A DNA stretch of 64,000 nucleotides, from NCBI GenBank assembly GCA_964645795.1, contig CAZYCL010000001.1:159194-223193 (forward strand). Direction: 5' to 3'. This stretch comes from an uncultured Planctomycetales bacterium (lineage in GTDB: Bacteria; Omnitrophota; Gorgyraeia; Gygaellales; Profunditerraquicolaceae). The notes beneath the pieces are model-generated. The model did no database searches and was not told the DNA's origin. It worked only from the letters and a program-made list of their open reading frames with translations. The position numbers and the translations under genes were made by a program. Shown here piece after piece: positions 11,113-36,647 of this stretch (position 1 is its first letter; each line of letters opens with the position of its first letter).

Positions 11113-11118
11113 CTCGTC

Positions 11119-11565
11119 TTAGTCTTTTCTTAAATGCAGGGGGCCTAATTTCCGCACGTTCTCAACCATCTCATGGGCTACGCGCACGAACTTGTCGCCT
11201 TCGCTGGCCGAAACCCAATCAAGCATAAACCTGTTATCTTCGATGCCAAAATCCTTTAAAGCTTCCTTAAAAAGCTTATAGCGCCTCAGGGCCTTGTAAT
11301 TGCCTTCCTTGTAATGGCAATCACCGGGATGGCAGCCCAGGATTATTACCCCATCAGCGCCTTCCCTGAACGCCTCAAGGACAAATTGCGGGTCAACCCT
11401 GCCGCTGCACATGACCCTGATGATCTTGATGTTAGGAGGAAAATCCTTCTGCGACCTTCCTGCGGAATCAGCGCCAGAATAAGAACACCAGTTACACAGT
11501 ATACCTACGATTTTAGGCTCAAACTGTACCATTGTTCCTCCTTTGGCCTCAGAACAATTCTTCAT
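11119..11565 (-). CDS. mvhD: Methyl-viologen-reducing hydrogenase delta subunit MvhD
   Basis: 148 aa; GILCNWCSY...CSGRVDP...ILGCHPGDCHY motifs typical of MvhD. Confidence 0.85.
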   Translation of the reverse strand: MKNCSEAKGGTMVQFEPKIVGILCNWCSYSGADSAGRSQKDFPPNIKIIRVMCSGRVDPQFVLEAFREGADGVIILGCHPGDCHYKEGNYKALRRYKLFKEALKDFGIEDNRFMLDWVSASEGDKFVRVAHEMVENVRKLGPLHLRKD

Positions 11566-11687
11566 TGATTACACAGATTAAAAAACTGATTACATAGATT
11601 AAATCTTAAAGCCGTTTTTTGTCCCAATCTGCGTAATCCCGTTTCTAATCTGTGTAATCTCGCTTCTTATCTGTGTAATCATTCTTT

Positions 11688-13655: not shown

Positions 13656-13692
13656 TTCCTTTGTTAAGGTTCTTAGGTTTTAGTGCCTGTCC

Positions 13693-13938
13693 TTAATCTA
13701 CTTCGAGCGAATCCACAACAAGTAACCTGCCGTCGATAAAATTTACCGAAACCTGCGTATTCTCCAGCTTTGTGCCTTTGCTAAAATGCGCAAACCAGAA
13801 TTTAAGGGATTCTTCCGATATGGCAAGGTCGCGTCCGAGATTGACCGAAACCCTGGCTACGGACTTCACATCCTCTTTGTCTTTAATCCGCTGCTGGAGG
13901 GAATCGACCAGGCCTTTTGTTATCCCCACCTCATGCAT
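13693..13938 (-). CDS. hypA: HypA-like hydrogenase nickel-insertion protein lacking the zinc-finger region
   Basis: The MHEVGIT start and SLKFWFAHFSKGT block match HypA. The protein is 81 aa and has no CxxC...CxxC zinc site. Confidence 0.55.
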   Translation of the reverse strand: MHEVGITKGLVDSLQQRIKDKEDVKSVARVSVNLGRDLAISEESLKFWFAHFSKGTKLENTQVSVNFIDGRLLVVDSLEVD

Positions 13939-13941
13939 GGC

Positions 13942-15531
13942 TTAAAACTCCTTAAGATTCTTACCGTCCTCCTCGAACGGAATAACATCCTCAGGCTTGC
14001 TTACTCTTACCCCCGAAAATGATCCCTTCATATCCTTTGAAGACGCTGCCAGCCTATGTCTTTCGAGCGACCTGCGGTCATGGCCAAGAAGCTTGGCTTT
14101 TGGGTCGATAAGGGCGTTCTTTGCCCCGCCTACGAGGTCGGTGAGTCCGGCAACAAGGCTCTTTAAAAGCTGGGCTTGGGAAGAAAGCTCCTCGGCGCTT
14201 GCCGCTGTTTCTTCGGCGGCGGAAGCGGTCTCGTGAGTTGCGGTGCTCACCTCGGCCACAGAACAGGCAACATTAGTGATGGCCTGCGACTGGTCAGAGC
14301 TGGCTTTGGCGATATCGGCTACAATATCGGCTACCTTGTTAGCATGGTCGCTTATATCGTTCAATGCCCCGCCTACTTTTTTGGCAATCTCCGAGCCGTT
14401 CTTGGCCTTAGAGATGTTATCCTCGATGAGGCTGGCTGTATCTTTGGCAGCCTCAGCGGAACGCTTGGCAAGATTTCTGACTTCCTCGGCTACTACGGCA
14501 AAGCCTTTGCCGTGCTCACCGGCCCTGGCTGCTTCAACCGCCGCATTCAAAGCCAGAAGATTGGTCTGGAAGGCGATCTCCTCGATAGTCTTAATGATCT
14601 TGGAGATCTTGTCAGAAGACTGGTTTATGGCCGACATCGCCTGTTCCATCTCTTGCATGGAGACATTTCCCTGTTCGGCGGTTCGTTTTGTATCCTGGGC
14701 GATATTGTTGGCTTTCTGGGCGTTTTCCGAATTCGAGAAGATCACCGTATTCATCTCTCCCAGTGAATCGGTAACCTGCTGAACGCCTGAAGCCTGCTCT
14801 GTAGCCCCTTGCGAAAGCTGTTGAGACGCAGAAGCGACATGAACGGAGGCGTTGGTGATCTCGTTAGCCGAGGAATCAAGGTTCTTTACCGTAGCCAGGA
14901 TCGGCTTGGCAATGGAGTTTCCCAGCAGGACGGTCACTGCTATCCCGGCTAAAATGATTATTGCCGAAAATACAAGGATGACGGAATTAATCCTGCCGGT
15001 GGTAGCCGAGACATACCCCTTGTCAAAACCGGTAAACCACATCCCGATAATCTGGTTAGCTTGATTTTTTATCGGAGAGTATTTTGACAAAACCTCTTTT
15101 CCCACGACATTGGCGATACCGATAAAATCCCTGCCTTCCCGGAGCACTTTCTGGTTGACCTCTTCCGAGACTTTCGTTCCCACGGCCCGGGAACCGTCCT
15201 CTTTGATCACGTTAGTCGCCACGCGGGTGTCAGCGGCAAAAATTGTAACCAGGGCGCCGGTGCTTGCCTTAATTTTATCCACAAACTCCCAATCACCGTT
15301 AAACAAATGCTCGCCCTTATAAAGCTCGTTACCCCTGAGGGACCACTCGCCCGGATAACTGGTTTCCAGAAAATCGCGGGAAAGCTTATGCTCAGTTTCA
15401 AGCTTAGATATGATAAGATTGTTGGAAAGCCTGCCGACTTCATGGCTTATGAAAAAATACACCCCCAGGCCGAACAATAGGAACAAAGATACGGTAGGAA
15501 TAGCAATTCTTTGCTTCATGCTGAACGCCAT
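13942..15531 (-). CDS. Methyl-accepting chemotaxis protein with periplasmic Cache-type sensor
   Basis: N-terminal TM, sensor region, second TM, then an MCP signalling domain ([38 protein letters not shown]). Confidence 0.9.
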
Positions 15532-15762
15532 CTTGGCCTCCTGTCAAAAGAAAAAGTAAATTAATTTTCTCCGGGCAAAAGCCGCTTTTATGGGGAATAA
15601 AAGCTGCCTTTCCCGAAGAGTCGGGACGGAAGGCATTTGGTGCGGCGTAGAGACAAGTTTTTTCTGCGCAAGCTCCGTTGCTTGGACCGCAAGAAAAAAC
15701 GTAAGTTGATTTACTAAATATATTATAATTTTTTCCTAACGCATTGCAAGCAAATAATTAAA

Positions 15763-16281
15763 CTAACTGCCTACCTGTTCGATAAGCCCCGCATCCTCCG
15801 TAAGCACCCTTTCGATGTTAAGCAGGATCTTTACCTTGTCGCCGACCTTTCCGATACCGGTTATGAAATCCGTATGGACGCTGGTACCAAACTTAGGAGT
15901 AGGCTCGATGCGGTCCTGAGATATGTCAAGGACCTCGGAGACCCTGTCCACGACTATGCCCATGAGCATATCTGCTACATTAAGGACTATGATGCAGGTC
16001 TCATTGGTATAGTTGATCTTCTCCATCCCGAATTTGAGACGCAAATCAATCACCGGTATTATCTTGCCCCTCAGGTTGATCACGCCTTTGACATACTCCG
16101 GGACCTTGGGGACTGCCGTGATATCCATAAGCCCGATGATCTCGCGCACCTGAAGTATCTCCAGGCCGTACTCCTCATGCCCGAGGACAAAAGTAAGATA
16201 TTTTCCTTCCTTGGCGGCTAACACCTCATCATTGATCCTTGCTCTTTCCGTCTCTCCCATCTTTGCCTCCTTTTTTCTCAA
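15763..16281 (-). CDS. cheW: Chemotaxis coupling protein CheW
   Basis: YLTFVLGHEEYGLEILQVREII...VINLRG motif. Confidence 0.9.
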   Translation of the reverse strand: MRKKEAKMGETERARINDEVLAAKEGKYLTFVLGHEEYGLEILQVREIIGLMDITAVPKVPEYVKGVINLRGKIIPVIDLRLKFGMEKINYTNETCIIVLNVADMLMGIVVDRVSEVLDISQDRIEPTPKFGTSVHTDFITGIGKVGDKVKILLNIERVLTEDAGLIEQVGS

Positions 16282-16300
16282 AATCCGTCCCTGTTCTTGG

Positions 16301-17959
16301 CTAAAACTCTTTCAGGCGATGGGCCTCATCTGCGGACAAAGCTTCATCGGGCCTGGTGATCATTGGGCCTGCATTATCCTGTTTAGCGGACCTGCCGGGT
16401 TCTGCGCTTTTCTGGGGTTTATTGGTTTGCGCGTGCCCCGCGCCATGCTTTAGCTGCTTCCTTCTTTCGCAAGCACTATCTATGCGCTCCTGGCTCTGGG
16501 CCAATGCCACCCTTAAACCGCCTATGACCTGAGCCAGCTCAACGATCAACCCCTTTAGCATCTGCGCCTGGGAAGAGAGCTCTTCGGCGCTAGATGCGCT
16601 CTCCTCGGCGGAGGCGGCGGTCTGCTGGGTAACCTGGTTCATCTGGGTGACGGCATTAGTGATCTGGTTTATGCCGCTGGACTGCTCCTTGGAAGCCGCG
16701 GCGATCTCCGCTACGAAATTAGCCACCTTGGTTGCCTGCTGGGTGATCACGTCAAAAGAAGTCTCGATATCTTTGGAGTTATCGAGGCTGGCTTTTGCCT
16801 TGGACATATTATCTTCTATGAGAGTAGCGGTATCTTTGGCCGCTTCCGCTGATCTCTTAGCCAGATTCCTTACTTCTTCGGCCACCACCGCAAAACCTTT
16901 GCCGTGCTCGCCTGCGCGCGCGGCCTCAACCGCAGCGTTCAAGGCCAGAAGGTTAGTCTGGAAGGCGATCTCCTCGATGGTCTTGATGATCCTGGATATC
17001 TTATCGGAAGACTGGCTCAACTCATGCATCGCCTCGCCCATCCTGCCCATGGCAATAGCCCCGGCTTCGGCAGAAGCCCTTGCTTCCTGGGCTATTTCAT
17101 TGGCCTTGGAGGCGTTCTCGGCATTCTGGTTGATCATGGCATTCATCTCTTCAAGAGAGCTGGATACCTCTTCAATAGACGAGGCCTGCTCGGTAGCCCC
17201 CTGGGAAAGCTCCTGGGAGGCTGCGGCAACTTCTGTAGCCGCGATAGTAGTCTGGTCTGCGCCGGAGTTAAGATTATAGGCGATGCGTTTTACGGGCCTG
17301 GCAATAGACCTGGCAAATAATACCGACACAACCGTAGTCGCCAGGAAAAGCAGAATAACTATAAACAAAGTCCAGTAGATAACCTTACCCACTTCTCTTT
17401 CGACGTCGTCTATATAAATACCACTACCCACGATCCAGCCCCACTTGGGATACAGCTTAACGAAAGAAATCTTAGGGTACTGCTTGGGATCGCCTGGTTT
17501 TCTCCAATAGTAATTTACAAACCCCTCTGCCTTCTGCCTGCAGACATTGACCATCTCTACGAAAAGCGCCTTTCCCGTAGGGTCCTTATAATCGATTAGG
17601 CTCTTGCCGTTAAGATCGGTGGTGATGGGGTGCATGATCATGCGCGGCTCAAGGTCGTTTATCCAAAAGTAATCATTATCGCCGTAACGCATGGCTCTTA
17701 TTTGCTCTATGGCCTTGCCCTGAGCTTCGGACAGAGAAAGCTCGCCCGCCTCCACCCTGTTGCCATAATCGGCGATGACGCTGAACGCCGCTTCCACCAG
17801 CTGCCGCGTCTTCAAGTATTTGGCATCATAAGCGCTGTTTCTGAACATCGGGACTATCCAAATCAGTATAAGAGAAAACGCAAGAGCGATACCGATGCAC
17901 AACAGCAGTATCTTGCTAAAAATACCCATGTTCTTGAACATCTCCCCCTCCTTTTTCAC
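16301..17959 (-). CDS. Methyl-accepting chemotaxis protein with sCache_2-type sensor
   Basis: [16 protein letters not shown] sensor motif; MCP signalling domain nearly identical to that of the other MCP. Confidence 0.9.
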
Positions 17960-18465
17960 TTACGCGCCAATACCCCGTAATCCGGCGCCCAGTCAGCCTG
18001 ACGGACCCTTCGAGTCTTAATCACTATGGCGTCGCCTGAACCGGTATTAAACATCACCTTCCTGCCCAAGCCTCCGCCGATGTCCTCGGACACGACATTG
18101 ATCCGGGATCTCCTTAAAATGCTTTTAACCGATTTTAAAACCTGCGCCGCCCTTCTCCTGGAAAAACCGCCGCAAGTATCCCCTCCTCCAAATATCTGCG
18201 CCTCCAGGGAATAGACGGAGGAGTTAAAAGACATCATCTGTTTTATCAAAGACGGTATGGCTATATCGACATGGTAGTTAGTGGCCCTCTCTCCCCACTT
18301 GACTTTCGGATAAATACAGTGGGCCATGCCTCCGGACCTTCTGATCTTATCCCAGAGCACGACAACAACGCCGTTACCGCATACGGAACACAAAAGCGTC
18401 GGCTCCTTGCAGACCACCATGTACCCCGGATTAATAATGCATTGATATTTAACCAGCGACTTCAT
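17956..18465 (-). CDS. cheD: CheD-like chemoreceptor glutamine deamidase (second paralog)
   Basis: [29 protein letters not shown] matches the CheD core. Start set at MKSLV to avoid overlap with cheR. Confidence 0.7.
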
Positions 18466-18472
18466 ATTCAGG

Positions 18473-19330
18473 TCAGTTCTTTTTAAACACTGCCGGCGCA
18501 ACGCTCTTAAGGTTAGCCCGCAGACCCAGGAGCGTTTCGGAGTGCCCGATTATAAGATAGCCGTCTTCGTCAAGGTATTTACAGAACTTATCCATCAGCT
18601 TCATCTGGGTATTAACGTCGAAGTAGATCATCACGTTCCTGCATAATATTATATCAAAAGGCCCCTGGAACGGAAAAGAATCGCTCATGAGGTTAACGCG
18701 GTAGAAGAAAGCCAGCTTTTTCACCAGATCGCTTACCTCAAAGGCGTCTTCCCCCGGAGCGCTTTTGCGGCGGAAGTAGCTCGAAAGCAGAAGCGGCGGC
18801 ACGCTTTTGATTTTGGACTCGTCATAACGGGCCTGCTTGGCGAAAGCCAGGACTTTGGTGGAAATATCGGAACCCAGGATCTTAACGTCCCAGGCATTCA
18901 AAGAGAGCTTCTGGTTCTTCATGTATTCAAGGAGGGTGATCAGAACGCTATAAACTTCCTCTCCGCTTGAGCAGCCTGCTGACCATATGCGCACCCTATG
19001 CCGTCTTCGGTTGCGCTCGAATATATCCGGGAAGATGCGCGTTGTCATAAAATCAAAATGCTGAACTTCGCGAAAGAACGAAGTAACGTTGGTAGATATT
19101 ACGTCGAGCATCTTCACAAGCTCTGCGCCGGACTTATCTTCCGTCACATACTTATAATAATCCCTGAAGCGGCTAAAGCCGTATACGCGCATACGCTTAA
19201 GCAGGCGCGCCTTAAGCAGCTCTTTTTTATTGTCGCCTAAAAAGATGCCGCTACGTTTATAGATAAGCTCGGCAAAGAGCGAATAATCCTGATCGCTGAT
19301 TTCCAAAGCGAAATCGCTGAAAAAACCCAT
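18473..19330 (-). CDS. cheR: Chemotaxis protein methyltransferase CheR
   Basis: SAM-methyltransferase motifs (TSFFRE, RIWSAGCSSGEEVYS). Confidence 0.9.
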   Translation of the reverse strand: MGFFSDFALEISDQDYSLFAELIYKRSGIFLGDNKKELLKARLLKRMRVYGFSRFRDYYKYVTEDKSGAELVKMLDVISTNVTSFFREVQHFDFMTTRIFPDIFERNRRRHRVRIWSAGCSSGEEVYSVLITLLEYMKNQKLSLNAWDVKILGSDISTKVLAFAKQARYDESKIKSVPPLLLSSYFRRKSAPGEDAFEVSDLVKKLAFFYRVNLMSDSFPFQGPFDIILCRNVMIYFDVNTQMKLMDKFCKYLDEDGYLIIGHSETLLGLRANLKSVAPAVFKKN

Positions 19331-19334
19331 ATGG

Positions 19335-19715
19335 CTATGTGAGGAAACTCTTGAGTTCTGCGCCGGTTTTAGCCGCGCTCATAAGATTGAGATCAATGAG
19401 CCTGCGTATGTGCGTAAGGTCGACATCGCGCATGCGAATAAAATAAATCCCGAAGCCTATCCCGGATTTACGCACGATCTTAGCCTGCCCCTGTACGGTT
19501 ATCCGCGGCCGCGTCCCGGGCAGGATGATCTTATACTCGATGCTGTCCCCGACCCGCAGGCCATTTCTCTTATCGGTCTTAACGTATACTCCTTTTAAAG
19601 AAATGTTATCTATAAGGCCGCTGAATCTATTCCTGCCCTTATACAGGATTATCGGATGAGCATAGGCTACGCGAGTGGTCTTTCTTTTGTTTGAATTATT
19701 TCTGCTGGTTATCAT
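19335..19715 (-). CDS. PilZ domain protein (putative c-di-GMP receptor)
   Basis: RKTTRV (RxxxR) and DNISLKG (D/NxSxxG) motifs. Confidence 0.7.
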   Translation of the reverse strand: MITSRNNSNKRKTTRVAYAHPIILYKGRNRFSGLIDNISLKGVYVKTDKRNGLRVGDSIEYKIILPGTRPRITVQGQAKIVRKSGIGFGIYFIRMRDVDLTHIRRLIDLNLMSAAKTGAELKSFLT

Positions 19716-20772
19716 TATTTACCTTTGAAAGGGCATTGATTATCTCCTTGCTCATATTCTCCAAAGACGCTACCTTTACTGCCGCGCCGAGCTTTATCGC
19801 CTCTTTAGGCATACCAAAGACGACGGAGCTAGCCTCATCCTGTGCCAATGTATAAGCCCCTTTTTGGCGCATCTGAAGCAAACCCCGCGCTCCGTCAGAG
19901 CCCATTCCCGTAAGTATCACTCCGATGACATTGGCCGAAGCGCAGGCAGCGACGGACTCAAAGAGGACGTCGACGCTTGGTCGTTGATGATGGACCTGCG
20001 GGCCGTCTTTTATCTTTACCGCGTAACTACCGTTTGCGCGGTGATGCAGGATCATATGTTTATTGCCGGGTGCGACCAGCGCCAGGCCCGCACGCACCTG
20101 ATCATTATCCTGCGCCTCCTTTACTTCCATGGCGCAGATACTATTAAGACGGTTGGCAAAAGAGGCGGTAAAGCCTGCGGGCATGTGCTGAACGATAAGG
20201 ATGCCGGGCATAAACTCGGGCAGCTCTACCAAAATATGCTCAATAGCCTGAGTGCCTCCGGTTGAGGCACCTATGGCTATGATACGGCTGTCTGTCTGAA
20301 GAGCCTGGTCAACGGCTTTCTTGGGCGGCCTTACGCTTTCAATAGGGATTTCCCTGCGCAAGGGCTCTTTTGTCTCGACGACTTTTGCCTGAGATGTGGC
20401 GCGGATTGCGTGGACCAGCCTCTTGGTCATCTCTTCCACCGGCTCACCGACCGCCGGCTTGCTGATAACCTCCATCGCGCCCAGCCCCAGCGCCATAACG
20501 GCCTTTTCGCTGTTCTGGGGGGCGACGGAGCTGACCACGATAACAGGCAGCGGATAATACTTCATAAGCTTGGCCAGGAACGATAACCCGTCCATCTTGG
20601 GCATCTCCAGGTCAAGCGTGATCACATCAGGTTTAAGCTTTAAAATCTTTTCACGGGCGACAAACGGGTCCAGGGCCGTACCGACGACCACGATATCCTC
20701 GTAGCGCGACAACTCATCGCTGAGGATCTTACGCACTACCGCGGAATCATCAATAACCAAAACCCTGATCAT
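19696..20772 (-). CDS. cheB: Chemotaxis response regulator protein-glutamate methylesterase CheB
   Basis: N-terminal REC domain (VLVIDDS...DLEMPKMDG) plus C-terminal methylesterase domain. Confidence 0.9.
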   Translation of the reverse strand: MIRVLVIDDSAVVRKILSDELSRYEDIVVVGTALDPFVAREKILKLKPDVITLDLEMPKMDGLSFLAKLMKYYPLPVIVVSSVAPQNSEKAVMALGLGAMEVISKPAVGEPVEEMTKRLVHAIRATSQAKVVETKEPLRREIPIESVRPPKKAVDQALQTDSRIIAIGASTGGTQAIEHILVELPEFMPGILIVQHMPAGFTASFANRLNSICAMEVKEAQDNDQVRAGLALVAPGNKHMILHHRANGSYAVKIKDGPQVHHQRPSVDVLFESVAACASANVIGVILTGMGSDGARGLLQMRQKGAYTLAQDEASSVVFGMPKEAIKLGAAVKVASLENMSKEIINALSKVNNDNQQK

Positions 20773-20778
20773 AGCTCT

Positions 20779-21246
20779 TTAGGCCTTTAGCTTTAATTCA
20801 CCGGGATCTTCGACAAAAAGATAAAGATCCGCCCTGCCGCCTTCGATGCCGATATGTGTTTCCCCGATACGCCCGTCAAGCGAGAAACCGTCTAACTCAA
20901 GTACCCGCGGAGGCATTATATGAAACACCTCTTTAGCTCCGCCGATCAACGGCAGGAGGTTGCCGCAAACTACGTTTGAGAGCTCTTTTATGGCATCAAG
21001 CTGCAGGTCCCTATCCGGCGGCGAGTCAGAACCAAGCATATTGGCGGTGATGCTCGGGAGCAGCCCCCCGCATATCTGCAGGATTATCTTGCCTTTGAAC
21101 GGGCCGAAAAACGAAGCTTCAACCGCGACTTCTGCCTCTGAATTCCCCTGCTCCTTTGTCATCTGTGCTTCCGGAAAAACGAAACCCATCTCCTCAAAAG
21201 CCATAAGCATGACTTTAGCCAAAGCCTCTTGCAGTTCCTTGTCCAT
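20779..21246 (-). CDS. CheX/CheC-family CheY-P phosphatase
   Basis: E-x2-N-x22-P motif (ELSNVVCGN...PP). Confidence 0.65.
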   Translation of the reverse strand: MDKELQEALAKVMLMAFEEMGFVFPEAQMTKEQGNSEAEVAVEASFFGPFKGKIILQICGGLLPSITANMLGSDSPPDRDLQLDAIKELSNVVCGNLLPLIGGAKEVFHIMPPRVLELDGFSLDGRIGETHIGIEGGRADLYLFVEDPGELKLKA

Positions 21247-21249
21247 ATA

Positions 21250-21624
21250 TCAGACCTCGATAACGTTGAGTATCGCCTCCCGCAGAGACTCGGGGGAAAA
21301 CGGTTTATGCACGAATCCATCGCTTTTTTTAGTCAACAGGTCGATCCGGGTCTCGCTGCTTTCAGTCGAGACGATGATCACCGGCAGATCCGCGGTAGCG
21401 GGGTTCTGCCTGATCTTATCGATCATCTCCTCGCCGTTCATCACCGGCATGTTTATGTCGGCCAGGACCAGGTCCAGCCAATGTTTATTTATCAACTCCA
21501 GCCCTTCCGCGCCGTTTGAGGCCTGATAGATCTCGCCAAGCGGGATATTGGAAAGGCGCAGCGTGCGGATGATCATCTCGCGCATGACCGCGCTGTCTTC
21601 TACGATAAGGATATTGAGCGCCAT
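21250..21624 (-). CDS. cheY: Chemotaxis response regulator CheY
   Basis: 124-aa single REC domain. Confidence 0.9.
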   Translation of the reverse strand: MALNILIVEDSAVMREMIIRTLRLSNIPLGEIYQASNGAEGLELINKHWLDLVLADINMPVMNGEEMIDKIRQNPATADLPVIIVSTESSETRIDLLTKKSDGFVHKPFSPESLREAILNVIEV

Positions 21625-21638
21625 AGCCCTGCCTCCTA

Positions 21639-22160
21639 TTAGCCCACGGCCATTCTGCCGTTTTTTAAAGATGGAACAAGGGTAGTTTCAACGCCTTGAG
21701 TCTTTATGACTACTTCTCCGTTAGAATTATTCAAAGCCATTGTCCGGGAAATGCTGCCCCCCACATCGTGCGACTTAAGAAGCAAACCATTCTTCCATAG
21801 CAGCTTCCTGAGCATGACAAAATTACGCTTGCCTATCTGAAAATAATCGTCTCCTCCTGCTGCTGAATGGAAAAAGGCGCCTCCGGCTGCAGCAATCACC
21901 ATGCGCTGTTTCTGTGCGCCCAGCTTATAGCACTCCGTAAACAAAAGCGGCACACCCGTATCAACGAACATATAGGGATTATTATCGGCTTTCTTGGCAT
22001 CCATCGTCGAAAGAGGCAGCATCACGTGTAGCAGCCCCCCGACGCCGGAAACCGGGTCATAAACACTGATCCCCAGGCAGCTGCCCAGGGCATAAGTGAT
22101 AAGTGTGTCGTCGGGATTGGATGAAACCTTAAGATCCGCTATTCCTACGATCTGCAGCAT
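21639..22160 (-). CDS. cheD: Chemoreceptor glutamine deamidase CheD
   Basis: ITYALGSCLGISVYDPVSGVGGLLHVMLP, the classic CheD motif. Confidence 0.85.
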   Translation of the reverse strand: MLQIVGIADLKVSSNPDDTLITYALGSCLGISVYDPVSGVGGLLHVMLPLSTMDAKKADNNPYMFVDTGVPLLFTECYKLGAQKQRMVIAAAGGAFFHSAAGGDDYFQIGKRNFVMLRKLLWKNGLLLKSHDVGGSISRTMALNNSNGEVVIKTQGVETTLVPSLKNGRMAVG

Positions 22161-22175
22161 GTTATTTTATCGGTA

Positions 22176-24764
22176 TTATAATTTAACAGTGTCGCCTCGC
22201 GAAAGAGCGATTATCCCCTGCACGTCCAGTATAAGCCCGACACGGCCGTCTCCCATTATCGCGCCCCCCGAAACGCCTTTTGCCTTGCGCACGAACGTCC
22301 CACCCAAAGACTTTACCACTACCTGCTGCTGGGTTATCAAATCATCGACAAGTAAAGCACAACGATCCTCCCTGTCTTCTACCACCACAAGCAATGCCTG
22401 GCTTATATCTTCGGCGGCATCGGTTATGCCGAATATCCTGTGCAACCTGACTATCGGTATAAGCCTGCCGCGGAACATTACCATCTCAGCGCTATTGGCA
22501 ACCGTTGAGACCGCCTCTTTGGCCGGCCGAAAGCTCATTGAGATGTTCACGGTAGGCAGTACGTAGCGCTGACTGCCAACCTTAAGGAGCATCCCATCGG
22601 TAATGGCCATGGTGAGGGGGAATTTTACGATAAAAGTGGAGCCCATCCCCGGCCTGGATATTATTTCTATCCTGCCATGCAAAGCCTCTATGTTCTTCTT
22701 GACCACATCCATGCCCACGCCCCTGCCCGAGACATCGGTGATCTTATCGGCGGTAGAAAAGCCGGGGAGAAAGATCAGGTTATAGATCTCGTTATCAACA
22801 AGCTCCTTGCCCGCCTCAAGCAAACCTTTTTCAACGGCCTTATCCAGGATCTTCTGGCGATCAAGGCCTCTACCGTCATCCTGGATCTCAACGATGATGT
22901 TGCCGCTCTGATGATAGGCCGAAAGTTTGACGCTGCCTGCCGAAGGCTTTCCGGCTTTTTCCCTTTCATCCGGATACTCAATACCGTGGTCAATGGCGTT
23001 ACGCATCATGTGCACCAGGGGGTCATTGATAATATCGACCATATTGCGGTCGATCTCGGTCTCTTCCCCTTCCGAAATGAAGTTAACAACCTTTCCGTTC
23101 TTCTGGGACAGGTCCCTGACCAGGCGCGCCATCTTCTGGAAAGTGCTTTTTAGCGGCACCATGCGCATAAGCATGCTTAGGTCCTGCAGCTCCCGGACGA
23201 ATTTAGCGGTATGCTGCACCTTTTTCAAAAGCGCGTCATTCTCGCTGGAAAGCATGGTTTTGTCCTGCGCAACCATAGAGTGGGCAATAACCAACTCGCC
23301 GATCATGTCGATGAGCCTGTCGAGACGATCGGTCCTTACCCTGACCGAAGAATCGATAAAAGTTTCGCCGCCCTTTATCTGCTGTTGGGTCCTCAAGGCC
23401 CTGCCTACGTCGGAAAGGCTGGCGGCTTTGGATTTTATCAGGGCCATGCCCAGAGGCTCGTTGCCCTGTTGCGCAACGGCATCCTCTATATCCTGGCGCG
23501 AGACCTTGCCTTCGGAAACCAGGATGTCTCCGATCCTCACCGACACCCCCGAATCCTCGGCTCCTTTTTCGCTCACGCCGCTTGAATGCGGGTCGCCGAG
23601 AGCGCTCAAAAGCTGGTCGTAATTTCCGGGTTTGATGATCGGCTCGCCGCCCAGAGAGTTTCGAACGCCTTCCAAAAGCAGCTTCAACATATCCACCGAA
23701 CGCAGTGCCAGGTCGGCGTAGCCTCCGGAATACTGTATTTTTTTATCGCGAATTTTGCTAAGCAGGTTTTCGGCCTTGTGAGCTAACTCCGCTATCAAGG
23801 TATAACCCAAAAACGATGAAGTGCCTTTTATGGTATGGAAAGCCCTGAATACGATATTAACGGCCTCTGCGTTAGAGGCATCCGTCTCAAGGGCCAGAAG
23901 GGCTGCCTCGGCTTTCTCTATGTAATCAAAGCTCTCGGTTACATAATCCGCAATAAGACTGGCGTCGCTCTGGGCAGGCTGGGATTTCTGCGGTTCCGGA
24001 CTTGAGTCGGTCGTTTCCGCCGGCTTAGATGAGGTATCAGCCGCCTTTGACTTGATTTTTTTGCTCTGCGCATTTTGAGCGTCCGGCAAAGACGCTTCTT
24101 TTAAGACCTTGTTTCCCTCTTTTCCCTGATCCACGAAGCTCATGGCGGTCTCGATCAGCGCGCCGGTGGAAGTCAATATCTCCTGGCTGCAGACGCCGGC
24201 CTCAAGGCTCGCATCCAGCTTCTTTAAAATCTGCCCAAGGACCTGATTCGCCCCGGCAGGAGACCTGCTGGATTCATACAGGGATCTGACCATCTCCCTT
24301 ATTGCCGACAGCCCCAGCAGATCCTGCGCCTCCAGGCGTATCAGGCTTGCAGCTATTTCGTCAAGCGTAGCTATTTTTTTCTGATTAAGGGCGTCGTCAC
24401 GATAAGGGCACTCTTCGGGAGAACGGCCGAGGGTTATCCACAGCGCTCTGCCGGCATCATTGAGCCGTTCGTTCTTGTTGGGGGCATCCGAAAGGAAATC
24501 GCCGACTGCCACAAGCGACATCTCGATTGCGTTAACAAGACAGAACGGATCGTCGCTGGTCTTTTCATAAACGGCCTGAAGCGCGTTTAAGGCGAGGTTT
24601 AATACGGAAGATAATTTATAGAGCTCTGAGGGGAGACAGCCGGCGAGCTCTTCCAATTGGCTGCCTATCCGGACAATAAGCTCCTTGTTGTCCGGGGTCA
24701 AATCCTTGAAAGAGGCTGAGAGCTTCCTTAATTTCTCAACAAGGGTTTTGCCTGTTTCTGGCAT
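22176..24764 (-). CDS. cheA: Chemotaxis histidine kinase CheA with about 270-aa N-terminal extension
   Basis: Hpt (FHTIKGTSSFLG), HATPase (DDGRGLD...GRGVGMD) and C-terminal CheW-like domain. Confidence 0.9.
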   Translation of the reverse strand: MPETGKTLVEKLRKLSASFKDLTPDNKELIVRIGSQLEELAGCLPSELYKLSSVLNLALNALQAVYEKTSDDPFCLVNAIEMSLVAVGDFLSDAPNKNERLNDAGRALWITLGRSPEECPYRDDALNQKKIATLDEIAASLIRLEAQDLLGLSAIREMVRSLYESSRSPAGANQVLGQILKKLDASLEAGVCSQEILTSTGALIETAMSFVDQGKEGNKVLKEASLPDAQNAQSKKIKSKAADTSSKPAETTDSSPEPQKSQPAQSDASLIADYVTESFDYIEKAEAALLALETDASNAEAVNIVFRAFHTIKGTSSFLGYTLIAELAHKAENLLSKIRDKKIQYSGGYADLALRSVDMLKLLLEGVRNSLGGEPIIKPGNYDQLLSALGDPHSSGVSEKGAEDSGVSVRIGDILVSEGKVSRQDIEDAVAQQGNEPLGMALIKSKAASLSDVGRALRTQQQIKGGETFIDSSVRVRTDRLDRLIDMIGELVIAHSMVAQDKTMLSSENDALLKKVQHTAKFVRELQDLSMLMRMVPLKSTFQKMARLVRDLSQKNGKVVNFISEGEETEIDRNMVDIINDPLVHMMRNAIDHGIEYPDEREKAGKPSAGSVKLSAYHQSGNIIVEIQDDGRGLDRQKILDKAVEKGLLEAGKELVDNEIYNLIFLPGFSTADKITDVSGRGVGMDVVKKNIEALHGRIEIISRPGMGSTFIVKFPLTMAITDGMLLKVGSQRYVLPTVNISMSFRPAKEAVSTVANSAEMVMFRGRLIPIVRLHRIFGITDAAEDISQALLVVVEDREDRCALLVDDLITQQQVVVKSLGGTFVRKAKGVSGGAIMGDGRVGLILDVQGIIALSRGDTVKL

Positions 24765-24788
24765 TATGTTATTGTTTTAAAACGAAAG

Positions 24789-25307
24789 CTACTTGTTAGG
24801 CTCGGGTCTGCCTATGCCGATCTTAACCCAGAATTGCCCAAAGCTGAACTTGAACAACAGACATACCGCTGGAGACTTGGCAGGCAGCAACAGCTCCAAC
24901 TCTTTGCCTCTGGCTACGGTAGGAATGGATAGATCGCTCTTGATGCCCCAGACCTCAAGACGTCCGGAAATGTCCCCGGTAAAGATATTAGTAAGCTCGC
25001 CGATAACGTCATTCATATCGGAGCTGGCAAACGGGATATCGCAGCGCGCAAACCTCTTTGCAACAACGACGGCTGCATCCTGAGAAAAACCCAGATGAAG
25101 GGAAAGCGCCAGCTCCTTACTTACCAAAGACATGATGCCCACGATTACGTCTTCAAGCGCGCCGTTTTCCTTCATGCCCACATACTGCGGTTTTTCGTTA
25201 CAGATAAGGCCAAGGGCCGATATGGTCGCTTGCTTTACATCTTCCAATAATTCTGGCGAAAGCCCGCTTCCGCTGAAAAGCTTACTTACAAGAATCGACT
25301 CCTCCAA
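24789..25307 (-). CDS. CheX/CheC-like phosphatase (second copy)
   Basis: GELTNIFTG motif containing E-x2-N. Confidence 0.55.
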   Translation of the reverse strand: MEESILVSKLFSGSGLSPELLEDVKQATISALGLICNEKPQYVGMKENGALEDVIVGIMSLVSKELALSLHLGFSQDAAVVVAKRFARCDIPFASSDMNDVIGELTNIFTGDISGRLEVWGIKSDLSIPTVARGKELELLLPAKSPAVCLLFKFSFGQFWVKIGIGRPEPNK

Positions 25308-25312
25308 AGCAG

Positions 25313-25753
25313 TTAACCTCCTCCCAAAAGCTTGCCGAAAAAGCCGCCTTTGCCTTTCTGTTTTCTCTGATTTATCTCCTCTATGAACTTGCTCAGCGCC
25401 CGGACAACATCATCGGTAGTAAAAGGCTTGCAGATATAGGCGTTGGCCCCGGCCTCATCAAGGGCCACTTCCATTTTACCCATCGCCTTTTCGCTGGTGA
25501 CCATTATAATAGGGGTAACATCTCCTCCGGGCCTCTTGCGTACTTCCTTCACGAAATCTACGCCGCTCATCTTGGGCATGTTCCAATCGGTAAAGACGAT
25601 ATCAATGGCAGCCGGATCAAACTTTGCCAGCGCATCCTCACCGCTGTCGGCCTCGATAAACTCAAACTCCGCCAGCTGGCTGCTGTTAACCGTAGATACG
25701 ATGATACCCCGCATTACTTTAGAGTCATCTACGACTAAAGCTTGAATCTTCAT
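25313..25753 (-). CDS. CheY-like response regulator with Gly-rich C-terminal tail
   Basis: REC domain (VVDDS...DWNMPKMSG...KP). Confidence 0.85.
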   Translation of the reverse strand: MKIQALVVDDSKVMRGIIVSTVNSSQLAEFEFIEADSGEDALAKFDPAAIDIVFTDWNMPKMSGVDFVKEVRKRPGGDVTPIIMVTSEKAMGKMEVALDEAGANAYICKPFTTDDVVRALSKFIEEINQRKQKGKGGFFGKLLGGG

Positions 25754-25858
25754 TTTTTCCCCTTTTTTTGATTATAGCAGCAAAATTATAACATATCCCA
25801 TAAGAATGTCAATAGGTTAGAATAAATCCGGGACAAATGGCAGCTTCAGCCCTCACCC

Positions 25859-25887
25859 TTGAATTACCTGCCAAAACGTGTTATAAT
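25859..25887 (+). promoter_or_regulatory. Sigma70-type promoter (TTGAAT-17-TATAAT) driving riboswitch 1
   Basis: -35 TTGAAT at 25859-25864, exact 17-bp spacer, consensus -10 TATAAT at 25882-25887. Confidence 0.6.
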
Positions 25888-25928
25888 TGTTATGTAACTT
25901 CGGACTATAATAAAAGTATATAGCCATT

Positions 25929-26005
25929 GAAAAGGCAAACTAGCAGTAATGCTGGGGCGCAAAGCTACAGCCCCGACTCTTAAGTCGGGGGGCTGAGCTG
26001 CCAAA
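25929..26005 (+). ncRNA. c-di-GMP-I (GEMM) riboswitch aptamer, copy 1
   Basis: GGCAAAC 5' element. P2 hairpin with GNRA (GUAA) tetraloop. GGGCGCAAAGC junction (Vc2 has GGACGCAAAGCC). P3 hairpin CAGCCCCGACU/AGUCGGGGGGCUG. P1 closure GGCA/UGCC. Confidence 0.7.
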
Positions 26006-26021
26006 GGTGAAGCTTGGTGCG

Positions 26022-26052
26022 ACCCCGGTTGATCTTACCGGGGTATTTTTTT
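26022..26052 (+). terminator. Intrinsic terminator (riboswitch 1 expression platform)
   Basis: CCCCGG-TTGATCTTA-CCGGGG hairpin followed by TATTTTTTT. Confidence 0.7.
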
Positions 26053-26077
26053 AGGAACCTAACGCAAGGAGGCAAAA

Positions 26078-28150
26078 ATGGGTATGGGACAGCTGAATAA
26101 ACTGGAGCATTATTTTAATCCTCTGAGGCTGCAGCTTATGCAGGCAGCCAGCAATATCATGAACCCTGCGCACATGCAGAAGATCAACGCCAAGATCCAA
26201 AGCTTGGCCAAAAACATTAATCCCCTGAAAGCAAAGGCCCATACCCAGCAGGATGTCTCGGTTAAGATGCAAGGTAGCTACACCGCCACTGCCTCCGTTC
26301 AATCTCAGCGGACGGGTAACGTGTTGAATGTCCTGGCCCAGTACAATGCCAGCGGCAATACCGCTTCCCAGCTTAACTCCAACCTATCCCAGACACAAAA
26401 TATAAAAGTAAACCAGGGTCAGCCAAAACCCGGGTATGCAAATCAAACCATACAGCTTGATCAAAGCCGCAATGTCCTGAGCAACTCTTCGTTCGATCTT
26501 GCCAGGACCGTTGACTCCACTATTGTCTCCAACGCTTACCAGAAAGTGGGCGGCTCTATAAGAGAAACCAGCATCACTACTAATACCAATCAGGATTTAA
26601 GCCGCTTGCAGAATACCAATGCCGTTACCGAAACAATGCGCAATGTAAGCAACACGGATAATAAAGGTAATGTCGTAGGCAATGCGTTTAGTCATACAAT
26701 AGTAAACCAGGAAACCAGCTCCGCCCTGAATCAAAACACGGTAAGCTCCCTCCAACGCGACGTGCTTCAGGATACCACAATCAGCAAAGCTAATATCGCA
26801 GGCGTAGCTATAACCAAAACACAGATAGATACGCAGGACACTCGCAGCGGCTCTACCAACATCCAAACCAACAGCCTGACCGATTATGCTGCCACGGTAA
26901 CCAGGCTCAACCAAGAAGGCCAGGTAATCGGCGTCCAGGATTCTAACCGGGTTAGCGAATCCAACGAAGACAGAAATATCGTCATGCAACAGAATATTAA
27001 CACGGAAAGGGAGATCCTCTCTCTTGCTAAGGGGCAGGAAAGAGTGAGCCTTGATACACAAAAGACCGAAGGCCAGCTGACCCAAAATACAAATGCCGCC
27101 GCTGCGACCGTAGTCACTAACCTCGCTCCTGACGGCTCGACCATATCGACGCAGGCCTATCTTACCAATACCGCCTCTACCCTTAATCAAAGCACCAATA
27201 CCGACATCAACCGCATCGTCAACCAGGATGCCGCAGGCGTGCGCGGAGCAGGAGAGCTAAGCAGTAAAGTAGTCACGGACATTGACACCAGGATAGAGAG
27301 CACCGCGCCCAACGGAAACGTCGCGGTGCGCGAAATCGAAAGGAATATCCAGGACCAGAACTCCGCTGCCTGGGCAGGGGCCATCGAGTTAACTAATCTC
27401 GAGGGGGGCGGCAGACTCTATAGCCTTAAGAACGTCGATGTGGGAAGCCGCGTAATCAACGACGTCACTAAGGAAGGTGTCAACGAGCTTAGGGTCAATA
27501 CCGACACCGCAACCGCCAAAATGGTTAGCGGAAGCGTCCAATACCAGCCGGCCGAACAGGTGACACCCGTCGGAAATGTCGCAGGTGCCGGGGTAGGAAT
27601 AAGCTTTGCCACCTATAGCGGTATTGCCAGCTCCTTTAAGCTGGATACGGGCGAGGTAAACTTCAGCTTCTCCTTCGCTTCTTCAGAGATCACCTCAAAA
27701 GAGACCGCTAAGTCTGTTGACGGAGAGCTGGCAAGCGAAGCCACGGCGCTTTCCGGCCAAAAGAACCAGGCGCAACTGGAAGGAAAACTCACTTCAACAG
27801 TGCTTGAAGACGGCAGCCGCCTGATCACGGTAAACGCCGCCTATGATAGAAGCGGCTTAAAGATGGTCACGGAAGGCGAAAAGAAAGGCGAGTTTGCACA
27901 AGCCGAACAAGATACCAATGTTCAATTACAGGGAACGATCCTGGTAAGTAAAAACGGGGAGGTAAAGACAGTAGAGTCTTCTTTCGACATGTTCAAGACA
28001 GAAGACTCCGAGGCCTCAGGCACAAGCGTTTCAGCGGTCAAGAACGCCCTGGCGCAGACAGACCCGTTGCGGAAAAACTTCTACTTCGATAACGGAACGC
28101 TCAGGTTCAACCTTGGCTTTGCGACGCTTAACTTCTCGGTCTACGCTTAA
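26078..28150 (+). CDS. Large Thr/Asn/Gln/Ser-rich hypothetical protein (690 aa, no Cys, no signal peptide) under riboswitch control
   Basis: AGGAGG Shine-Dalgarno 7 nt upstream of the ATG. Long polar low-complexity N-terminal part and beta-strand-like C-terminal third. No recognisable family. Confidence 0.7.
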   Translation: MGMGQLNKLEHYFNPLRLQLMQAASNIMNPAHMQKINAKIQSLAKNINPLKAKAHTQQDVSVKMQGSYTATASVQSQRTGNVLNVLAQYNASGNTASQLNSNLSQTQNIKVNQGQPKPGYANQTIQLDQSRNVLSNSSFDLARTVDSTIVSNAYQKVGGSIRETSITTNTNQDLSRLQNTNAVTETMRNVSNTDNKGNVVGNAFSHTIVNQETSSALNQNTVSSLQRDVLQDTTISKANIAGVAITKTQIDTQDTRSGSTNIQTNSLTDYAATVTRLNQEGQVIGVQDSNRVSESNEDRNIVMQQNINTEREILSLAKGQERVSLDTQKTEGQLTQNTNAAAATVVTNLAPDGSTISTQAYLTNTASTLNQSTNTDINRIVNQDAAGVRGAGELSSKVVTDIDTRIESTAPNGNVAVREIERNIQDQNSAAWAGAIELTNLEGGGRLYSLKNVDVGSRVINDVTKEGVNELRVNTDTATAKMVSGSVQYQPAEQVTPVGNVAGAGVGISFATYSGIASSFKLDTGEVNFSFSFASSEITSKETAKSVDGELASEATALSGQKNQAQLEGKLTSTVLEDGSRLITVNAAYDRSGLKMVTEGEKKGEFAQAEQDTNVQLQGTILVSKNGEVKTVESSFDMFKTEDSEASGTSVSAVKNALAQTDPLRKNFYFDNGTLRFNLGFATLNFSVYA

Positions 28151-28169: not shown

Positions 28170-29132
28170 TCAAAGCTTCTTAAGCAGCTCCCTGACTTCG
28201 CCCGCAAGGGCGGAGTCGGGGTTTTTTGTTAAAAACAGCTCCCACTGCTTCTTGGCCTTATCGTTCTCTTTAAGGTTATAGAAACAGGCCCCAAGATGGT
28301 AAAGCACTATGGGATCCCCTACCCCGCATTCTATACCCCTGGAAAAAGATTCGGCTGCCGCCTTATAATCTTTCTGGTCCATGAGCACCAATCCCAGGTT
28401 ATAATGCGCCAGGCCGAAATCGGATTTCAGGCTTAGGGCCCTCTCGAATTCGCTCTTAGCTTCTACCCTCTTATTCTGATTAAGATAAACAAGGCCAAGA
28501 TTCAGGTGCGCCTCAAAATAATTATCATCGATCTCAAGCGCCCGCTTAAAAGCATCCTCGGCTTCGGCCAGCTGCTGCTTGGTAAGATAGGCCAGCCCCA
28601 GATTATAATAAGCAAACTTATAATCGCCCTTTAAGAGGATGGATTTGTTAAAACTCTCTATCGCCTGGTCGACCTTGTTCTGCTGGTAATATACTATCCC
28701 GAGGTTATTGTGGGCCATGAAATTATCGGGCTTTATCCTGGCCAGGGCCTCAAAGTAGTGCTGGGCCTGTGCGATATTGCCCCTGGAGTAATAAATGGAA
28801 CCCAGCGCCATGTGTGCTTCTTCGCTTGACGGGTTAAGCACTACCATCTTCTCCCAGTAGAATACCGCTTTTTCCTCGTTGCGTAAATTCTGATGGGCCA
28901 AAGCGAGGTTAAAAAGCGCCGCCTGGAACTGAGGGTTAAGCCTTAAGGCCTCTTCCCATTCAGCCACCGCCTTATCCCAATCCTTGGCCAGGGCATAGGT
29001 ATTACCGAGATTAAAGTGCGCGATCGCATCCCCCGGATTCTTGGCGATCACCTTCTGAAGCAGGCCTGCGGCCTCTTCGTATTTGCCTTCCTTGAATAAT
29101 TCCTCTATTTCATCGGCCATCTCTGCCTCCAA
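28170..29132 (-). CDS. TPR repeat protein
   Basis: Repeated AxxxLGxxYxxxxxxxxAxxxFxxAL units. Confidence 0.85.
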   Translation of the reverse strand: MEAEMADEIEELFKEGKYEEAAGLLQKVIAKNPGDAIAHFNLGNTYALAKDWDKAVAEWEEALRLNPQFQAALFNLALAHQNLRNEEKAVFYWEKMVVLNPSSEEAHMALGSIYYSRGNIAQAQHYFEALARIKPDNFMAHNNLGIVYYQQNKVDQAIESFNKSILLKGDYKFAYYNLGLAYLTKQQLAEAEDAFKRALEIDDNYFEAHLNLGLVYLNQNKRVEAKSEFERALSLKSDFGLAHYNLGLVLMDQKDYKAAAESFSRGIECGVGDPIVLYHLGACFYNLKENDKAKKQWELFLTKNPDSALAGEVRELLKKL

Positions 29133-35699: not shown

Positions 35700-36647
35700 T
35701 TATTTTACTTTCTCGGTAATCTTATAAAGTACGCCTGCGGCTACGGCGGGCTTGGGCAGCATATACTTCCTGGCTGAAACCTTAACGTTGGTAACCCCGG
35801 GGAGAGCGCCGACCTTTACGTTGATCTTGACGCCGTTGACCTCTGCTTCGATTATACCGGACCCCCTATCATCGCTGGTCAATCTGCCCATTTTCTCTAA
35901 CGTATCTACGCACGCCTTGTATACCGCATCAAACGATGACCTAAAGTCATGCTCAACGCTATCCCTGCCGGCAAAAGTCGCCGCCACCGCCACCGGCAGC
36001 ACCGCCACCCCCGTCAAGGCGGCTACTCCGTAAATAGCCGCGCCCTGGATACCCGCGACCTTCATCGGTTCGGCTACGATAAGGGCAGCCAGCTGCTGGA
36101 CGCTGGATATATTTTTATAGGTCTTATTGATGTTGATCTCATAAACGCTTATCGCCGGCGTTGCCTCACCCGAACTGTAATCCCTGGAGACGACTTTTCC
36201 GATGATCAGGTCAAGCGAATCGATCTGAATAGGCATCTCTTTGGCGGGCTTGCCGGAGTTCTCCTGCCTTGCAATCTTAAGGGAGTCGGCGTTAAGCCTG
36301 CCGTTTTTGTTTTTCTCCACCCCCATCTCCGTAAGCTCTATGCGCGCGTAAGGCAGGTGGAGCCTGCCCCTTAAGATCGCGGCGGCATCATAAACGATCT
36401 CCATGCTCGAAAGATACACCATCTTGGAAGGGGAAAAACCTGAAGGGTTATAGAGAGAAAAACCGGATATCTTAACCTTTCGGGAAAAGAGCCCGAGAGA
36501 AAACCAGTCGATACTGGCGGGGGCCGCGGTGGCTCCGGAAACTGCCAGGATGATCAAATTCTTGATTACCAGGTCTTTAGTAATTCCGATGCCCGCAAAT
36601 ACCAGTGCCAGCGCGCAAAGGATAAGGATTATCTTTTTAAGCTCCAT
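35700..36647 (-). CDS. Hypothetical membrane-anchored protein
   Basis: Signal/TM at the N-terminus; no family recognised. Confidence 0.5.
   Translation of the reverse strand: MELKKIILILCALALVFAGIGITKDLVIKNLIILAVSGATAAPASIDWFSLGLFSRKVKISGFSLYNPSGFSPSKMVYLSSMEIVYDAAAILRGRLHLPYARIELTEMGVEKNKNGRLNADSLKIARQENSGKPAKEMPIQIDSLDLIIGKVVSRDYSSGEATPAISVYEININKTYKNISSVQQLAALIVAEPMKVAGIQGAAIYGVAALTGVAVLPVAVAATFAGRDSVEHDFRSSFDAVYKACVDTLEKMGRLTSDDRGSGIIEAEVNGVKINVKVGALPGVTNVKVSARKYMLPKPAVAAGVLYKITEKVK

Follow-up and report, generated by a model that had tools for sequence, protein, structure and literature searches.

We analysed a 64,000-nucleotide (nt) stretch of contig CAZYCL010000001.1, hereafter the window, in which a leader carrying a cyclic di-GMP class I (c-di-GMP-I, or GEMM-I) aptamer precedes the gene for a 690-amino-acid (aa) protein. 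A promoter, the aptamer, an intrinsic terminator, a Shine-Dalgarno (SD) sequence and the coding sequence (CDS) follow one another on the forward strand, a gene for a tetratricopeptide-repeat (TPR) protein converges on the CDS, and a chemotaxis operon diverges from the leader (Table 1). An initial annotation of this DNA had proposed at its core that a large, polar orphan protein is under the control of a GEMM-I aptamer equipped with a promoter and a terminator; this is supported by the covariance-model score, by conservation of the leader, by covariation within the aptamer and by profile searches of the protein that came back empty. The riboswitch is real, a fresh and previously unrecorded instance of a well-known class. 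Homologous loci on metagenomic contigs are referred to below by L numbers.

Aptamer and expression signals

The whole window was scanned with cmscan against Rfam at gathering thresholds, where RF01051 and RF03167 form clan CL00126. Two matches were returned, the aptamer and a tRNA-Leu(CAG) at 48607-48689 (+), the latter being the sole other Rfam or ARAGORN match in the window. The best model for the aptamer, at 25925-26006 (+), was RF03167 (c-di-GMP-I-GGC; 63.8 bits, threshold 59, E 9.9e-13), and one further match from the same clan reached gathering level, its model unnamed, as the best clan member alone is listed. The initial annotation had expected RF01051: the clan assignment stood, with a score above gathering, a leader kept before four divergent homologues and compensatory base changes, and the predicted top model did not. 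Each aptamer part that it had named is present in the sequence, namely GGCAAAC, a GUAA tetraloop on P2, GGGGCGCAAAGC and a closing GCUGCC.

In alignments to the models, the interhelical pair is kept, with C44 corresponding to C 25957 (in the loop that reads GGC) and G83 lying within the GG bulge at 25991-25992. The same alignments reveal no tetraloop receptor (CUAAG...UAUG) in P3 of the window aptamer, although the P2 loop is GUAA. Judged from them, the aptamer is of a receptor-less sub-type: GUAA caps P2, and P3 is short and devoid of the 11-nt tetraloop receptor, a property that defines the sub-type and not the class. The GAC internal loop reads GGC (A43G) at position 25956 of the window and at position 7863 of L008, and GAC in L003, L004 and L014; the G-run around A43G in the window is also the predicted pairing partner of the terminator 5' arm.

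The near-consensus sigma70 promoter, Rho-independent terminator and perfect SD that had been proposed around the aptamer all held up. The promoter agrees with the consensus at 10 of 12 positions and has the TG of an extended -10 element, in a scan that returned nine promoter-like sites in a 3-kb region compared with 2.8 expected. Transcription is predicted to start at about 25894, yielding a leader of about 184 nt. An 8-bp hairpin at 26022-26044, with six G-C pairs and followed by AUUUUUUU, forms the terminator, and AAGGAGG is separated by 5 nt from the ATG at 26078. The open reading frame (ORF) could not start earlier, since no start codon lies between this ATG and the preceding in-frame stop. 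The riboswitch promoter and the promoter facing the chemotaxis operon stand back to back, 47 nt apart.

Conservation and covariation of the leader

The arrangement of aptamer, terminator and SD precedes homologues of the 690-aa gene at four other metagenomic loci: L003, L004 (identical to L006), L008 (identical to L009) and L014. The L003 aptamer scores 65.2 bits on RF01051 (threshold 35), and those of L004/L006, L008/L009 and L014 score 60.5, 64.4 and 62.3 bits, likewise above threshold. L003 lies on a contig syntenic with the window, and its leader displays the order promoter, aptamer, terminator and SD, including the same TTGAAT-17-TGGTATAAT promoter 5' of the aptamer.

Covariation was counted over four of the five leaders, for 18 pairs in P1a, P2 and P3. 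Both sides have changed in a compensatory manner in nine of these pairs, and 98.6% of the aligned cells hold standard pairs; none of 500 shuffles did as well, and sliding the 3' partners by one to three columns reduced the paired fraction to 26-46%. P1 is off by one column in the MAFFT alignment and was judged by eye and by constrained folding: it comprises four to seven pairs per leader, with covariation, and was recovered in the constrained folds. The GEMM-I fold is furthermore the unconstrained minimum-energy fold of the aptamer alone in L003, L004 and L008.

Table 1 Features of the riboswitch locus and its flanks (positions in the window)
Feature	Position	Strand	Basis or remark
Chemotaxis operon: CheY, CheX, CheA, CheD, CheY, CheX, CheB, PilZ, CheR, CheD	17956-25753	-	also in L003
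Divergent consensus sigma70 promoter, TTGACA-16-TATAAT, TG present	25785-25812	-	12/12 positions; faces cheY-led operon
Sigma70-like promoter: -35 TTGAAT, 17-nt spacer, extended -10 TGTTATAAT (TATAAT with TG)	25859-25887	+	10/12 positions
c-di-GMP-I (GEMM-I clan) aptamer	25923-26008	+	cmscan RF03167, covariation, constrained fold
Aptamer P1	25923-25929 / 26002-26008	+	read by eye; formed in constrained fold
Positions equivalent to G20, A47 and C92	25934, 25960, 26001	+	position in model alignments
Aptamer P1a	GC 25935-36 with GC 25958-59	+	
Aptamer P2, CUAGCA-GUAA-UGCUGG		+	
Proposed antiterminator 5' strand CUGGGGCGC (P2 3' strand and junction)	25951-25959	+	complementary to 26019-26029, start of terminator 5' arm
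Aptamer P3	25962-25999	+	
Intrinsic terminator: stem ACCCCGGU / ACCGGGGU, 7-nt loop, then AUUUUUUU	26021-26052	+	hairpin -14.8 kcal/mol
SD, AAGGAGG	26066-26072	+	sequence
CDS of the 690-aa orphan protein	26078-28150	+	ORF list, composition, predicted structure
Terminator-like hairpin, 14 bp, 10 G-C, and T-run	28190-28231	+	3' of the 690-aa CDS
TPR-only partner gene, about 316 aa, no signal peptide, likely start ATG 29120	28170-29132	-	near-consensus TPRs, about nine

A rare family of signal-less proteins

As had been noted from the ORF, the 690-aa protein contains no cysteine and no signal peptide. It has a single tryptophan and is rich in threonine (10.3%), serine (10.0%), asparagine (9.9%) and glutamine (7.8%), these four residues making up 38% of the chain. 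Inspection by eye found no signal peptide: the N-terminus (MGMGQLNKLEHYFNPLRLQL...) lacks a hydrophobic core and an earlier start, and the same holds for 16 relatives. The initial annotation could place the protein in no recognisable family, and profile searches of Pfam, NCBIfam, PADLOC, PHROGs and PDB bear this out. No significant Pfam or NCBIfam match was obtained, Pfam being empty for all 16 aligned members as well, and the family profile matched no PDB sequence. The lack of PADLOC and PHROGs matches gives no link to defence systems or phages, and no relatives were found in viral contigs. The reported lack of a flagellin/FlgK N-terminal signature is also confirmed, with no Pfam match at E <= 10. 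A flagellin or flagellar axial protein was rejected, since neither Flagellin_N/C nor Flg_bb_rod was detected at that cut-off and the C-terminus is predicted to be beta; an RHS/YD-repeat shell was rejected as well, neither YD repeats (Pfam RHS_repeat) nor a cocoon fold having been found.

Exhaustive HMMER searching of 1.84 billion representative proteins yielded 23 proteins at E <= 1e-3, of which about 20 are true full-length or fragmentary relatives. Most relatives are 645-748 aa long and align over their full length. The sole close relative is P0002, encoded in L003 (56% identity), and the homologues in L004, L008 and L014 are 30-36% identical. Two giant proteins, the subtilisin-containing P0021 and P0022, were weak hits of the first profile that a hidden Markov model (HMM) built from the 16-sequence family did not recover, and were discarded as compositional. 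Searching a word index for homologues, with either the single sequence or the 16-sequence profile as query, recovered nothing beyond the protein itself and one relative of 56% identity, low-complexity words swamping the candidates. Of two scans of genome contigs, the first gave no relatives and the second one fragment, from an Armatimonadetes metagenome-assembled genome (MAG); the named relatives are Armatimonadota MAG proteins. Directly upstream of the Armatimonadetes homologue at L007 lies a secretin-family ORF (228-1127; Secretin_N and Secretin domains, 299 aa).

Most members share a short motif within their first 25 residues that occurs almost nowhere else, consisting of a hydrophobic residue, then F/L/M, then N, then P/L/A. 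It reads YFNP in the window (residues 8-28, 26099-26161) and YLNP, YMNP, FFNL, LFNL or IFNA in relatives, and may act as a TPR-binding or export signal. On the sequence criteria above, the 690-aa protein founds a very rare family, whose proteins have about 690 residues and lack cysteine and a signal peptide.

A linked TPR gene

The initial annotation had missed the TPR gene that converges on the 690-aa gene. A TPR protein of the same family adjoins the large gene at L003, L004, L005, L008, L010, L012, L013, L014 and L016, such that the partner is adjacent in 10 of the 11 loci, window included, whose DNA could be checked. The sole exception is L015, where positions 10107-16439 encode a SEC-C-motif / DUF7986 protein and, after it, two members of the Omp85 family, of which one is fused to peptidase and Tricorn-like domains. 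At one further locus, outside the count of 11, a 303-aa gene with no recorded Pfam hit occupies the partner position. The partners are orthologous, the family HMM matching those of L014 and L016 at E 1e-146 and 1e-95, respectively, and they diverge in step with the large protein (72%, 50% and 30% identity to the window partner in L003, L004 and L010). The terminator-like hairpin 3' of the 690-aa CDS falls in the last ~20 codons of the convergent TPR gene, which code for its conserved C-terminal NPDS-LA--(V/I)R motif.

Because of this linkage, the two proteins almost certainly act together, and the linkage is the strongest functional clue at the locus. The partner combines a TPR fold, a cytosolic location and adjacency to a putative client; on its simplest reading, it would bind the disordered N-terminus of the 690-aa protein as a chaperone or adaptor.

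Predicted structure of the 690-aa protein

With the 16-sequence alignment, AlphaFold2 (AF2) returned a model with a mean predicted local distance difference test (pLDDT) of 84.4 and a predicted template-modelling score (pTM) of 0.71. In this model residues 1-51 are disordered apart from a helix at 30-46, and the remainder (52-689) is built of about 22 antiparallel strands, each 20-42 residues long, with 2-residue turns and 5-residue D/N-x-x-G loops alternating between them. The initial annotation had divided the protein into a polar N-terminal two thirds and a beta-strand-like C-terminal third; the polar first two thirds are confirmed, whereas the predicted beta structure extends over the whole of residues 52-650 and is not restricted to the C-terminal third. 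Family-mean hydropathy indicates that both strand faces are polar over residues 52-384 (strands 1-9), with hydrophobic residues only near the hairpin ends, and that classical alternating strands appear only after residue 387. Foldseek found no close fold match, all hits being local matches of low template-modelling (TM) score (<=0.16 against PDB, <=0.20 against BFVD). On the model, a giant barrel-like antiparallel beta-meander is the most fitting description, and the fold has no close solved counterpart.

The chief competing explanation concerns this shape. The barrel could be an artefact of a shallow alignment, the real protein being an extended, repeat-like polar beta fibre or sheet (an S-layer-like or adhesin-like substrate of a type I secretion system or of the flagellar type III secretion system (T3SS)) or an intracellular scaffold. 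The model depends on 16 sequences, a run with two sequences reached a pLDDT of 33, weak internal hairpin repeats can be discerned (e.g. FKLDTGEVNF resembles FYFDNGTLRFNLGF), no PDB or BFVD entry shows more than low global similarity, and the composition fits proteins secreted independently of Sec; the 16-sequence scores given above speak for the barrel-like model. We regard an artefact as a serious possibility, though one well short of even odds. It touches the shape alone and is compatible with the riboswitch part of our explanation.

Direction of the switch

The initial annotation had left the direction of regulation open. In four leaders analysed the terminator is set apart from P1, by spacers of 12, 17, 3 and 19 nt, and in the full-length minimum-energy structure of each it coexists with the folded aptamer. 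A bound aptamer thus has no evident way of blocking the terminator, and regulation consequently needs an antiterminator that forms when the aptamer is unlocked. For each leader the transcript was cut just before the terminator 3' arm and folded, and its energy was compared with that of the native aptamer fold. The terminator 5' arm paired with some aptamer strand in all four cut transcripts. In the window the partner is the 3' strand of P2 with the junction (CUGGGGCGC x GCG-ACCCCGG; -9.6 kcal/mol relative to the native aptamer fold), in L008 the 3' strand of P3 (-5.0 kcal/mol), and in L004 and L003 the 3' strand of P1 (-1.2 and -0.7 kcal/mol, respectively). In C. difficile all seven functional class-I switches, Cd1 included, are terminator-based OFF switches (PMC6366702). 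The folding favours an OFF switch, which we accept with moderate confidence.

At low c-di-GMP, the aptamer would be unlocked and, with the polymerase still 5' of the terminator 3' arm, the C-rich terminator 5' arm (GCGACCCCGG) would pair with the G-rich strand formed by the P2 3' side and junction. This antiterminator pairing would keep the terminator hairpin from forming, and the mRNA would be completed. At high c-di-GMP, the ligand would clamp P1, P2 and P3 via G20, A47 and C92 and so free the 5' arm; the terminator would form and transcription would end before the SD, leaving the gene OFF.

The same riboswitch could instead be an ON switch, in which c-di-GMP promotes read-through and the 690-aa protein is a biofilm, matrix or adhesion component of the sessile state. 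Class-I switches of this direction exist, such as Bc2 of B. thuringiensis (PMC6366702), the composition of the protein resembles that of adhesins and surface-layer proteins, and the L003 and L004 leaders lend the antiterminator weak support. Against an ON switch stand the terminator that neither overlaps P1 nor is displaced by the folded aptamer in the four minimum-energy structures, and the finding that no alternative pairing between the spacer and a terminator arm was found in the leaders analysed. We therefore judge an ON switch unlikely.

Ligand

In the Vc2 aptamer, the residues that contact c-di-GMP are G20, A47 and C92 (PMC4744006). All five aptamers of the family contain GG(C/U)AAAC, CGCAAA and (G/A)CC, which match these three positions. 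Two differences separate the Rfam consensuses: RF03167 has CGCGAA where RF01051 has CGCAAA, at the position equivalent to Vc2 A47, and RF03167 lacks the CUAAG/UAUG tetraloop receptor in P3. From these two consensus lines, the 'GGC' in the name RF03167 appears to denote positions 20, 47 and 92. The variant G at the A47 position was found in none of the window, L003, L004, L008 and L014 aptamers, all of which read CGCAAA, nor was the A at position 20 that marks cyclic AMP-GMP (cGAMP) sensors of the GEMM-Ib type, this base being G in the window (25934, AAAAGGCAAAC) and in the four other aptamers. With G20, A47 and C92 canonical, the aptamer should bind c-di-GMP and is not a G47 variant; its ligand is probably c-di-GMP, recognised with canonical specificity.

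The RF03167 label nevertheless raises the alternative that the aptamer is a specificity variant ('GGC') or a cGAMP-type GEMM-Ib aptamer sensing another ligand. RF03167 is the top Rfam model in four of the five distinct leaders, and in the window and L008 the GAC internal loop departs from the consensus by a G. The one base that separates the two consensuses is A in all five aptamers, however, G20 and C92 are canonical, leaving no A20 of the cGAMP-sensor kind, and the orthologous L003 aptamer has RF01051 as its best model. Related c-di-GMP-I covariance models tend to recognise the same RNAs (PMC9943018), and RF03167 outscores RF01051 here because of the short, receptor-less P3 and not because of a variant base. 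A different ligand is accordingly very improbable. An Rfam 'GGC' variant model can thus outscore its parent on aptamers with canonical ligand-contact bases, so automated annotation may mislabel ligand specificity.

Genomic context and host

The chemotaxis operon from which the riboswitch gene diverges had been described as encoding a PilZ protein, and its gene content agrees with this. The stand-alone 126-aa PilZ protein (19335-19715) constitutes a second c-di-GMP input at the locus, and the operon contains duplicated modules, with two CheY, two CheX and two CheD. Both in the window and in L003, the gene pair lies between the chemotaxis operon, to which two methyl-accepting chemotaxis proteins and CheW also belong, and a flagellar cluster (FlgB, FlgC, FliE, FliF, FliG, FliH, FliI, FliJ), and Che-type or two-component signalling genes occur near L004, L010, L012 and L014. 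Between the flagellar and chemotaxis clusters of the window, positions 8470-13655 (-) encode a NiFe-hydrogenase large subunit, a small-subunit-like protein (Oxidored_q6) and an HdrA-like Fe-S flavoprotein.

FliI of the window shares 74-76% identity with the FliI proteins of 'Candidatus Omnitrophica' MAGs, so the host is probably an Omnitrophota-like diderm. A 314-aa protein at 35700-36647 (-) has a sub-threshold match to DUF748 (AsmA/TamB-like; 45 bits, cut-off 50); this match and the LpxA-like genes of L008 are a hint of diderm hosts.

Overall interpretation

Our preferred explanation combines a c-di-GMP OFF switch with a TPR-chaperoned structural protein exported independently of Sec, and we assign it as a whole a probability of roughly 0.55. 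The regulated gene would be monocistronic and transcribed from the promoter at 25859-25887, with the class-I aptamer as the first structured element of the transcript. The dedicated cytosolic TPR protein would bind the disordered, motif-bearing N-terminus as a chaperone or targeting adaptor, and the beta protein, produced when c-di-GMP is low and the cell motile, would serve as a structural component that is exported, extracellular or associated with the envelope. Of the possible roles of the 690-aa protein, the most plausible is a structural one in the low-c-di-GMP state, after export or in association with the envelope. More specifically, and rather doubtfully, the locus might encode a hitherto undescribed two-gene module of Omnitrophota- and Armatimonadota-like bacteria, in which a TPR chaperone serves a signal-less, giant and fully polar beta-barrel or tube (about 22 strands, up to 42 residues, no solved counterpart) that is exported independently of Sec and, while c-di-GMP is low and the cells are motile, assembled at the cell surface or beyond it.

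Several observations weigh against this explanation. The riboswitch was not found in 8 of the 13 family loci scanned, so that c-di-GMP control is a feature of a sub-clade and not intrinsic to the gene-pair module. The antiterminator is strong in the window and L008 only and marginal in L003 and L004, the duplexes beat those of shuffled arms weakly (fractions 0.15 in the window, 0.03 in L008, 0.08 in L004 and 0.78 in L003), and the direction of a class-I switch in one species does not predict that in another (PMC6366702). A43G is an unusual, non-consensus change in the window and L008 aptamers. Within 18 kb at L008 there are no motility genes and no Che-type or two-component signalling genes, and across the loci the module has no secretion-system gene as a constant neighbour. 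The chaperone and export roles are drawn from composition, the missing signal peptide and gene adjacency. As for the fold, Foldseek TM-scores reach at most 0.2, and a closed barrel is a putative feature of the model.

The polar strand faces and the lack of a signal peptide in every member argue against a lipid-embedded porin, and an outer-membrane protein, porin or TonB-dependent receptor was rejected, there being neither a cleavable Sec signal peptide nor a lipid-facing hydrophobic belt. The least probable explanation overall, an outer-membrane beta-barrel channel working with a TPR protein as in the exopolysaccharide exporters AlgK/AlgE, BcsC, PgaA and PelB, shares with the locus the pairing of a predicted barrel with TPRs and is very improbable, as the large protein and its partner both lack a signal peptide or lipobox with an upstream start being impossible, neither a hydrophobic belt nor an aromatic girdle accompanies residues 52-384, which are polar on both faces, the strands span 20-42 residues between uniformly short loops, no synthase or glycosyltransferase genes are linked, and structural similarity is as low as stated above.

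To our knowledge, almost nothing is known about lifestyle switching in uncultured candidate-phylum bacteria. The main value of the riboswitch is that of a label, which marks an uncharacterised gene pair in such bacteria as part of a c-di-GMP regulon. The 690-aa protein, with some 20 metagenomic relatives, a confidently predicted all-beta structure and no close PDB match, is a small and concrete target for structural and functional work, and a true OFF direction would make it a new component of the envelope or the extracellular space in the motile phase.

Comparison with known systems

Large outer-membrane beta-barrels such as TonB-dependent receptors, MtrB, CymA and BcsC differ from the 690-aa protein, which lacks a signal peptide, a plug domain and a hydrophobic belt; identities amount to 4-9%, TM-scores do not exceed 0.2 and no sequence-profile relationship exists, and the protein described here has short loops and strands of 20-42 residues. 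A further comparison is with TPR chaperone-substrate pairs such as the T3SS class II chaperones with their translocators, with which the gene pair shares a cytosolic TPR-only protein beside a signal-less, probably exported protein with a disordered N-terminus. The chaperones of that system have about 160 aa and three TPRs, whereas the partner here has about 316 aa and about nine TPRs; the putative substrate is all-beta, unlike the helical or transmembrane translocators, and the locus contains no injectisome genes.

The riboswitch itself has close known counterparts. With RF03167 it shares overall architecture, length and a score above threshold, the discriminating base being A (CGCAAA) here and G (CGCGAA) there. 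Compared with RF01051 switches, the short P3 lacks the receptor, A43 is G in the window and L008, and RF03167 scores higher; the host is an uncultured candidate-phylum bacterium, and the regulated gene is unlike any described GEMM target. With the RF01051 aptamers Vc2 of V. cholerae and Cd1 of C. difficile it has in common the three-helix aptamer, GGCAAAC, the GNRA-capped P2, the CGCAAAGC junction and G20, A47 and C92, and with Cd1 in addition an intrinsic terminator after the aptamer and neighbouring motility genes.

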